A stretch of DNA of 24,824 nucleotides, from IMG/VR virus record IMGVR_UViG_3300050821_003111; one strand, given 5' to 3'. Every line of letters begins with the position of its first letter. Positions within the stretch are counted from its first letter, which is position 1. Below are positions 10,134 to 10,481 of the stretch, piece after piece. This DNA is from a virus. The notes below the pieces were generated by a model, which saw only the letters and a program-made list of their open reading frames with translations, was not told the origin of the DNA and did no database searches. Made by a program: the position numbers and the translations under genes.

Positions 10134-10256
10134 TTATCTATAAGGAATAAGCCAGGATGGTTTGAGAGGCCAATCTAAATACTCGTATTTACCTGAAAAT
10201 GATAAACGAATCCAAGTACTATAAGCAGTTACCGATCTTCTTACCCACCATTTCAT
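10134..10256 (-). CDS. MKWW-family micro-protein, 40 aa (MKWWVRRSVTAYSTWIRLSFSGKYEYLDWPLKPSWLIPYR)
   Basis: ATG overlaps the TGA of the preceding MSWW ORF (ATGA). Conserved N-terminal MKWWxR. Confidence 0.5.
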   Translation of the reverse strand: MKWWVRRSVTAYSTWIRLSFSGKYEYLDWPLKPSWLIPYR

Positions 10257-10390
10257 ATTGTTACTCGTCTCCTGTGGAAATGATAACTTGGAAGTCCAGT
10301 CTTAAGTGTGTATGGGTACTTACGCCAGGTGATAGCTATGAATAACTTATTATTAGGATAACCAGTTGAGAATCTCTTCCACCAGCTCAT
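10253..10390 (-). CDS. MKWW-family micro-protein, 45 aa (MSWWKRFSTGYPNNKLFIAITWRKYPYTLKTGLPSYHFHRRRVTI)
   Basis: N-terminal MSWWKR and internal WRKYPY motif. A 14-codon ORF (MLPRGRWSDTPFKK) overlaps its start in ATGA fashion. Confidence 0.5.
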   Translation of the reverse strand: MSWWKRFSTGYPNNKLFIAITWRKYPYTLKTGLPSYHFHRRRVTI

Positions 10391-10481
10391 TTCTTAAATG
10401 GAGTGTCGCTCCATCGTCCCCTAGGTAGCATAAGTCTAGTGATATAGGAGTGTCTTCCTCGTAGATAAAACCTTATCCACA

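Follow-up and report, generated by a model that had tools for sequence, protein, structure and literature searches.

Are the very short open reading frames (ORFs) that lie end to end between a gene for a SpoU-type RNA 2'-O-methyltransferase and an ADP-ribose-removing NADAR-domain gene in the IMG/VR virus record IMGVR_UViG_3300050821_003111 genuine genes, and, if they are, how are they expressed and what might their products do? The DNA analyzed in this study is a stretch of 24,824 nucleotides (nt) from that record, referred to hereafter as the window. The ORFs are assigned, one of them with less certainty, to a family of small basic proteins that start with Met-Lys-Trp-Trp or a close variant (the MKWW family). 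As the explanation of the locus as a whole, our results somewhat favor a three-gene MKWW array with coupled translation and selected peptides that have an accessory role in nucleic-acid binding or counter-defense.

Three Tiled ORFs Between the SpoU and NADAR Genes

The sequence-only reading, for which no databases were searched, had placed at positions 10134-10431 a third MKWW array consisting of two members and a 14-codon overlapping leader. An array was indeed found between the SpoU and NADAR genes. It spanned positions 10134-10482, however, and probably contained three members instead of two (Table 1). The 45- and 40-amino-acid (aa) ORFs with their ATGA overlap (units 2 and 3) were present as claimed on the minus strand, on which all genes of the window lie in the ORF list. 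Also present was the 14-codon ORF (MLPRGRWSDTPFKK; ATG at 10431, stop at 10387), which overlaps the start of unit 2 by ATGA. As a separate leader it did not stand, for its frame stays open upstream to an ATG at 10482, giving a 31-aa ORF (unit 1). This ATG shares its A with the SpoU stop codon. The junctions of the array were TAATG between SpoU and unit 1, ATGA between units 1 and 2, ATGA between units 2 and 3, and finally a 10-nt gap with AAGAGGT before a 56-aa ORF.

Membership was assessed with a profile hidden Markov model (HMM) of the family, which was run on all fetched loci (2.6 Mb) with reversed sequences as the null. The scores of members were 18-50 bits versus a maximum of 12.5 bits for the reversed sequences. 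Units 2 and 3 both scored above this maximum (Table 1), and their starts, MSWWKR and MKWWVR, have the N-terminal feature M-[KST]-W-W-x-R of the family. The earlier proposal that they belong to the same family as the other two arrays of the window was thereby upheld.

Unit 1 is probably a third member with a degenerate, either decaying or divergent, N-terminus, because of its position, length and charge (isoelectric point, pI, 11.7) and because equivalent first units are found in related phage contigs. It was aligned to the family as W-I-R-F ... I-T-R-L-M-L-P-R-G-R-W. In every SpoU/NADAR locus compared, the SpoU stop codon is also where the first unit begins. It is full-length in L114 (MKWWFRF...), L112 (MKWWVRT...) and L113 (MKWWCIF...) and degenerate in L115 (MKRLPPY...GRLLLPRYPKDLR) and L116 (MIKRLYNR...), where it resembles the MWIRFY... 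of the window. Because the first units of the relatives start on the SpoU stop and two of them are degenerate, the supposed 14-codon leader was read as the tail of a third member; what the relatives have at the SpoU stop is a full-length or degenerate family member, not a conserved leader peptide. Two features of unit 1 count against a three-member array. It has a single W and lacks the K, so that both the WW motif and the N-terminal feature are missing, and its HMM score of 7.9 bits was under the null maximum. A clear member from a relative, L116_4th, scored just 8.8 bits owing to the correction for composition bias.

Table 1. Features of the SpoU-NADAR operon and MKWW arrays of the window.
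Feature	Positions	Strand	Remarks
Terminator-like hairpin upstream of SpoU	11058..11085	-	12-bp stem followed by T-run; taken as 5' boundary of the operon
SpoU-type RNA 2'-O-methyltransferase	10482..11036	-	184 aa; Pfam PF00588, E 5.4e-15
Array 3, unit 1 (probable member)	10387..10482	-	31-aa ORF, MWIRFYLRGRHSYITRLMLPRGRWSDTPFKK; MWIR in place of MKWWIR; pI 11.7
Array 3, unit 2	10253..10390	-	45-aa ORF, MSWWKRFSTGYPNNKLFIAITWRKYPYTLKTGLPSYHFHRRRVTI; starts MSWWKRF; HMM 35.9 bits; pI 11.1; net charge +9
Array 3, unit 3	10134..10256	-	40-aa ORF, MKWWVRRSVTAYSTWIRLSFSGKYEYLDWPLKPSWLIPYR; starts MKWWVRR; HMM 18.0 bits
56-aa ORF	9953..10123	-	Conserved, not a family member; AAGAGGT 5 nt before ATG
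NADAR-domain gene	9511..9978	-	Start ATG 9969 or TTG 9978; PF08719, E 5.1e-24; match from residue 11 of 155-aa form
121-aa ORF	9168..9533	-	From ORF list; last gene of transcription unit; no Pfam family
Terminator-like hairpin after 121-aa ORF	9089..9120	-	12-bp stem followed by T-run; taken as 3' boundary of the operon
Array 2, six members	16104..16782	-	Immediately upstream of and overlapping T4 Rnl1-type RNA ligase gene; HMM 25.8-34.9 bits
Array 1, four members	21979..22490	-	Between weak SprT-like ORF and NMNAT/Nudix gene; HMM 32-49.8 bits

The MKWW Family in the Window

The sequence ATGANNTGGTGG occurred 10 times in the window versus 0.03 times expected from dinucleotide-preserving shuffles, and all 10 sites were on the minus strand, at ORF starts and within the three arrays. 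A scan for ORFs starting with M-x(0-3)-WW identified twelve good M[KST]WW members of 32-47 aa, which were distributed as 4 + 6 + 2 in arrays 1, 2 and 3. The family size in the window is 12-13 members. Members are 27-48 aa long and begin with M-[KST]-W-W-x-R, for which the family definition permits one extra residue after Met. A variable turn then leads into a hydrophobic strand and R-[KR]-[YW], and the tail is basic, often with R[RK]S[FI] at its end. In the alignment, W3 and W4 were invariant and an Arg at positions ~23-29 was nearly so, with the consensus MKWWxR...IxLxxRKY...S. The paralogs were strongly diverged, and only the first two units of array 2, which were 48% identical, looked like recent duplicates.

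The pI of family members ranged from 9.8 to 11.7 and their net charge from +5 to +10. Over 35 unique members, the composition was 16.6% R, 9.6% W, 8.4% K and 3.4% D plus E; Tyr is abundant as well. A 120-aa ORF at 22094-22456 on the plus strand lies antisense to array 1, and the plus strand is otherwise free of genes. It is probably a shadow ORF and could be mis-annotated instead of the four small genes.

Relatives and Distribution of the Family

Relatives were sought by scanning IMG/VR with a two-unit DNA pattern and then by anchoring on SpoU in IMG/VR and in metagenomes of JGI. The DNA pattern revealed the family in two contigs of one other phage (L008 and L016; 110 and 215 kb; GC content 0.50), in which two members are directly upstream of an RNA-ligase homolog with ATGA overlaps, matching array 2. 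The loci L115, L008, L016 and L022 correspond to the 215-kb IMG/VR contig with a GC content of 0.50 (IMGVR_UViG_3300018004_000004). Members were confined to a clade whose SpoU proteins are at least 65% identical to that of the window (L115/L022, L114, L116, L112 and L113), and these relatives carry them at the same SpoU/NADAR and RNA-ligase junctions. For instance, SpoU of the window was 72% identical to its L022/L115 homolog, whose direct 3' neighbors are family members too. Similarly, the position of array 2 at the RNA ligase is also filled by members in L115, L114 and L116.

The number of tiled units at the SpoU/NADAR junction varied from 1 to 5 among the relatives, whose GC contents are 42-50%: it was 3 in the window and in L114, 2 in L115 and L112, 5 in L116 and 1 in L113. 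Unequal recombination at the conserved start motifs may be the source of these changes in copy number. The same architecture was observed in six or more independent assemblies with GC contents of 40-50%. The claim that the pattern is systematic was thus substantiated, as five to six related contigs have it at the same junctions between genes. No members were found in dozens of other, mostly large, SpoU-carrying phage contigs. Outgroup phages, whose SpoU proteins are at most 61% identical, also had no family members downstream of SpoU, and one of them (L117) has an unrelated 93-aa basic ORF there. Bacterial genomes gave at least 120 matches to the two-unit DNA pattern, yet the HMM detected no convincing small-ORF arrays among them.

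In addition, a 4.4-kb viral contig (L323; IMGVR_UViG_3300044470_000464) has about seven tiled x[KR]WW ORFs at 510-1839 on the minus strand, including ORFs of 61-64 aa that start with MMxRWW and have a common C..IGS.SLW motif. This array is flanked by a 123-aa ORF with a GIY-YIG homing-endonuclease-like gene and by an ORF with a weak match to the Macro domain (E 0.0098, below the Pfam cut-off). The Macro-domain neighbor is a hint of a second link to genes for ADP-ribose processing.

The phages of L115 and L114 share about 80-90% DNA identity. Comparison of L115 4803-7056 with L114 6907-6930 revealed a block of about 2.2 kb that is present in L115 only and is bounded by single MKWW units, one inside its left end (4841-4975) and one at its right end (7053-7154, equivalent to L114 6930-7028). 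The block codes for two proteins, one of 433 aa that is secreted or membrane-like and one of 223 aa that is coiled-coil-like.

Coding Potential and Purifying Selection

Comparisons among the relatives indicate that the family very probably consists of real protein-coding microproteins under purifying selection. For the member of the relatives that adjoins the 56-aa gene, the ratio of non-synonymous to synonymous substitution rates (dN/dS) was 0.12-0.27 in the four pairs with estimable dS, and for two members of the relatives near the RNA ligase it was 0.08 and 0.02. One pair of positional orthologs had 10 synonymous versus 1 non-synonymous difference. Differences at codon positions 1, 2 and 3 numbered 27, 20 and 50, respectively (p = 5e-4). 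Moreover, the codon of the conserved Arg that follows WW (position 6) differs among copies, being AGA, CGT or CGC.

Alternatively, the arrays might be non-coding repeat DNA or RNA (an intergenic repeat, an array of promoters or stem-loops, or a small RNA) or the debris of a frameshifted gene, in either case open by chance. A motif of 12-19 nt does recur at the start of each unit, and gene callers left most of the arrays empty. DNA similarity among copies is limited to these 12-19 nt at the ORF starts, however. Rfam gave no matches within the arrays, and the mRNA of array 3 (10124-10490, minus strand) folded no better than its shuffles (z = +1.06), 88 of 100 of which folded as well. Also contrary to a non-coding origin are the excess of third-position differences, the dN/dS values well below 1, the switching of Arg codons and the recurrence of the architecture in assemblies of different GC content. 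Finally, a full HMMER scan of 1.84 billion representatives returned one chance match, to an HYR-like repeat protein, and no long protein with the module. A non-coding or debris origin is therefore close to refuted. Both a plain DNA repeat, on the short shared stretch, and a structured RNA, on the folding result and the Rfam search, were rejected.

Two further candidates were also rejected. A tRNA-like or CCA-ending RNA on the plus strand was considered, given that TGGTGG is the reverse complement of CCACCA; the tRNAs found with ARAGORN and Rfam were only elsewhere and on the minus strand. Expression of the units as a polyprotein via repeated -1 frameshifting was considered as well, and inspection of the sequence found no slippery heptamer common to the junctions.

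Probable Translational Coupling

The best explanation for the SpoU-NADAR locus is that the three ORFs are part of one transcription unit that comprises SpoU, the three MKWW ORFs, the 56-aa ORF, NADAR and the 121-aa ORF. Terminator-like hairpins were found on either side of these genes (Table 1), and no terminator-like site was found inside the operon (9121 to 11057).

Adjacent units in the family either overlap, as ATGA, TTGA or TAATG, or are separated by 7-15 nt with GGAG-like, Shine-Dalgarno sequences, in agreement with the statement that array 3 follows the coupling logic of the other arrays. The junctions of array 2 were ATGA, TTGA, TAATG, TAATG and ATGA. Array 1 begins with an ATG that forms an ATGA overlap with the stop codon upstream, and it ends 10 nt before the NMNAT/Nudix gene. 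From this arrangement, serial translation by coupling is likely: with every stop codon overlapping or adjoining the following start codon, the ORFs would most likely be translated one after another by termination-reinitiation.

The codons at the ends of the units were also consistent with coupling. Of the Arg codons at C-terminal positions -4 and -3, 24 of 28 were AGG or AGA (16 were AGG), whereas elsewhere in the same ORFs AGR accounted for 71 of 184 and AGG for only 14 of 184. The resulting sequences, such as AGGAGATCTTTCTAATG, place a Shine-Dalgarno sequence 7-10 nt upstream of the following start codon. The purine-rich codons for the basic residues at the C-terminus thus double as the Shine-Dalgarno sequence of the following ORF, and in this way each unit supplies the next one with its ribosome-binding site. 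The C-terminal R[RK]S[FI] thus reflects, at least partly, a constraint on the mRNA.

Coupling of short ORFs to enzyme genes also allows a different interpretation, in which the units are regulatory upstream ORFs that act as a relay. Their tandem Trp codons, together with Lys, Arg and Tyr codons, would sense the supply of charged tRNAs or damage to tRNAs and tune the downstream enzymes, namely the 56-aa ORF with NADAR, the RNA ligase and NMNAT, and the peptides would be by-products. UGG UGG is invariant at codons 3-4 (35 of 35 members), each array is translationally coupled to a downstream enzyme gene, and the phage encodes tRNA repair (Thg1 and two RNA ligases), all of which fit such a relay, as does the Shine-Dalgarno signal in the C-terminal codons. 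Like trp-type leader peptides, the units are short ORFs that contain two neighboring UGG codons and precede enzyme genes to which they are coupled; a run of such codons alone does not define the class. Different from trp-type leaders, however, the WW is at codons 3-4, the copies are serial, selection acts on the entire peptide, neither alternative hairpins nor a terminator were found, and no Trp-biosynthesis genes are involved. Selection extends to the middle strand and the RKY motif (dN/dS 0.02-0.27), up to six serial copies are not needed by a sensor, and the mRNA was without significant structure or a terminator within the operon. Moreover, stalling at codons 3-4 would lower reinitiation downstream, not raise it. 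A regulatory relay is thus improbable, and peptides selected as products and translated in series are preferred.

Neighboring Genes of the SpoU-NADAR Operon and the Window

The 56-aa ORF downstream of unit 3 had been described as having a good ribosome-binding site and overlapping the NADAR start. Both statements agreed with our results: AAGAGGT is upstream of it, and its last 17-26 nt overlap the NADAR start at ATG 9969 or TTG 9978. It had no Pfam match. Its homologs were found in the same position in L022 (4803-4993) and L116 (5417-5611). At the other end of the operon, a 29-aa ORF (MTNWWTVTSS...; 9079-9168, minus strand) starts on the stop of the 121-aa ORF and overlaps the hairpin at 9089-9120. 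The family HMM gave it about 1 bit, and it is probably a spurious ORF outside the family.

Comparison of the 27 larger ORFs of the window with Pfam showed the window to be an accessory island with genes for NAMPT, NMNAT/Nudix, two RNA ligases, Thg1, SpoU and NADAR. Also in the window were a major-vault-protein-like gene, glutathionylspermidine synthase, peptide deformylase, SSB, five tRNAs and a match to RNase P RNA. The NADAR domain has been shown to serve phages against DarTG1 (PMC11825919). Similarly, the Nampt plus Nmnat (NARP2) pathway is a published anti-defense function of phages (10.1101/2024.02.11.579819).

At 19523-21968 on the minus strand, the NAMPT gene (PF18127 and PF04095) adjoins a gene whose 324-aa product combines a Nudix domain with an N-terminal part resembling nucleotidyltransferases. 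The NAMPT and NMNAT/Nudix pair resembles the Nampt plus Nmnat NARP2 pathway by which phages reconstitute NAD+ against NAD-depleting defense.

Between Thg1 and SpoU, an 806-aa protein is encoded at 11100-13520 on the minus strand. It has the shoulder and vault-repeat domains of the major vault protein and an SPFH/Band-7 domain, and its sole DNA-level relative among sequenced phages was an uncultured 462-kb phage (LR756500.1), with 66% identity.

Just downstream of the terminator of the SpoU-NADAR operon, bacterial RNase P class A RNA of Rfam was matched at 8663-8932 on the minus strand with 106.3 bits (gathering score 100; E 6.5e-32). The match spans model positions 1-367 in only 270 nt and is therefore compact; the contig is phage-like. 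In the relatives L114, L115 and L116, no match to RNase P RNA reached the gathering threshold. In addition, ARAGORN called a 93-nt tRNA-Ile(TAT) at 2718-2810 on the minus strand that was not reported by the tRNA model of Rfam. It may have an intron, be atypical or be a false call.

Predicted Structure and Proposed Role of the Peptides

The structures of two members were modeled with AlphaFold2 from the alignment of paralogs. For a 47-aa member, strands at residues 4-9 and 23-28 and a helix at 29-38 were predicted with a mean predicted local distance difference test (pLDDT) score of 71.5, and for unit 2 (45 aa), strands at 4-8 and 16-20 were predicted with a mean pLDDT of 60.5. The models thus predict an N-terminal beta-hairpin, one face of which would bear Lys, Trp and Arg side chains.

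A binding or accessory role is proposed because of the cationic and aromatic character of the peptides, the predicted hairpin and the rapid turnover of sequence and copy number. The peptides themselves would be the selected product. Their ligand may be a nucleic acid (DNA, tRNA or another RNA) or a host protein that targets nucleic acid, and they may be accessory or counter-defense factors of the RNA-repair, NAD and ADP-ribose island of the phage. The arrays occupy junctions adjoining NMNAT/Nudix, RNA ligase and SpoU/NADAR.

Small proteins with a comparable setting are known from other phages. The Stp peptide of T4, with 26 aa, acts in a conflict between tRNA cleavage and RNA ligase, which is the kind of gene neighborhood seen around the MKWW arrays. 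Similar to Stp and anti-CRISPR-type small proteins, the MKWW peptides are very short, are often missed by annotation, are encoded in accessory or counter-defense regions and turn over rapidly between related phages. Different from these small phage proteins, however, there are 12-13 MKWW paralogs within 25 kb, in tiled coupled arrays, with an invariant MKWW start and no similarity to a catalogued family. The MKWW peptides also share R/W composition, shortness and a predicted hairpin with a Lys/Trp/Arg face with arginine-rich-motif peptides, such as lambda N and the beta-hairpin of BIV Tat, and with the Trp/Arg-rich indolicidin and tritrpticin. This likeness, which is compositional only and does not involve homology, suggests binding at a nucleic-acid or membrane interface; the MKWW peptides have no signal peptide.

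The same composition might instead suit peptides that condense DNA, neutralizing charge like J of phiX174 or Mu of adenovirus, and that are produced in quantity and packed with a large genome. Their size (27-48 aa), extreme basicity and aromatic residues fit such a role, phiX174 J and similar packaging proteins being highly basic, 25-40 aa long and provided with aromatic residues, and the related contigs are large (215 kb). The arrays are located, however, among enzymes of RNA, NAD and ADP-ribose metabolism in an accessory operon and not among structural or packaging genes, and no match to a known virion or packaging family was found in PHROGs. The family, unlike J, is multi-copy, and its rapid turnover of sequence and copy number would be unexpected for a simple polycation. 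A DNA-condensing role has, in our view, little probability.

Similarly, tandem multi-copy short ORFs with a conserved N-terminus and a variable remainder are reminiscent of the precursors of ribosomally synthesized and post-translationally modified peptides (RiPPs), such as the multi-copy prochlorosin-type arrays, in which one part is conserved for recognition and the other varies, and residues like those of K-W-W are cross-linked in some radical-SAM RiPPs. The 27 larger ORFs of the window compared with Pfam, however, contained no radical-SAM, YcaO, lanthipeptide or other maturase domain, and no export or protease gene is nearby. Moreover, the conserved part of about six residues plus an internal strand does not have the layout of leader and core. 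The MKWW peptides are thus very improbable as RiPP precursors, and we return to selected peptides with an accessory role as the preferred explanation.

Several points weigh against this explanation. Translation of the ORFs is itself inferred, and public gene callers predicted only 1 of the 12-13 ORFs, unit 3. The three units of the window have no clear one-to-one orthologs in the relatives, so that selection was measured on the members of the relatives. As Trp has a single codon, the invariant WW is not assignable to the protein level, and UGGUGG could also be an mRNA signal; an mRNA signal likewise explains part of the conservation at the C-terminus. The beta-hairpin was predicted with moderate to low confidence from shallow alignments of paralogs, and Foldseek found no structural neighbors of the models in the PDB, with E > 1 for all matches. 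Finally, the role in nucleic-acid binding or counter-defense, inferred from composition and neighborhood only, is tentative and rather doubtful when taken by itself, and the functional proposal is a guess with no mechanistic tie of the peptides to SpoU, NADAR or the ligase.

A bolder and unlikely version of the proposal is that the MKWW arrays are a new class of counter-defense cassette, consisting of expandable coupled sets of hypervariable cationic beta-hairpin microproteins. Alongside the RNA ligase, SpoU, NADAR and NAD salvage, each paralog would either protect a nucleic-acid substrate (phage DNA or tRNA) or inhibit a different nucleic-acid-targeting effector of host immunity, anticodon nucleases and ADP-ribosyltransferases being examples.

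Novelty and Implications

Searches of Pfam, PHROGs, NCBIfam, PADLOC and PDB sequences gave no family match at E <= 1 except isolated ones at chance level. Nothing significant was found when two members were searched with tblastn against 50,697 phage records (INPHARED), and blastn of 8 kb of the window against phages gave only weak matches, to Thg1 and the major-vault-protein gene. Among 5.8 billion protein clusters, a word-indexed search found no sequence other than the 40-aa ORF of the window itself (P0001), and a literature search for 'MKWW' found nothing relevant. In the public gene calls (ENA ERZ27253508 k141_1621833), the 650-bp region of array 2 (L020 3467-4116, equivalent to window 16141-16790) was empty and only 1 of the 3 units of array 3 was called. 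Because these gene calls omit array 2 and most of array 3, protein databases in effect lack the family.

Phage genomes are known to contain unannotated small ORFs. We know of no described small phage protein with the features of the MKWW family, and to our knowledge a family of this kind, with an invariant MKWW start, 12-13 tiled coupled paralogs, codons that form Shine-Dalgarno sequences and placement among repair and anti-defense enzymes, is catalogued nowhere and has not been described. If the ORFs are translated, standard annotation has overlooked 12-13 genes in a single stretch of 25 kb from a probably large, uncultivated phage, only one of which is in a collection of 15 billion proteins, and the intergenic gaps of phage operons can be filled with selected microgenes. 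The arrays would also be a clean case for studying the expansion and contraction of microprotein gene arrays. Moreover, the family adjoins enzymes that are known or suspected to act against bacterial immunity, namely NADAR, Nampt/Nmnat, RNA ligases, Thg1 and SpoU, and its members of 30-45 residues can be synthesized and are candidates for new anti-defense or RNA-binding activities.

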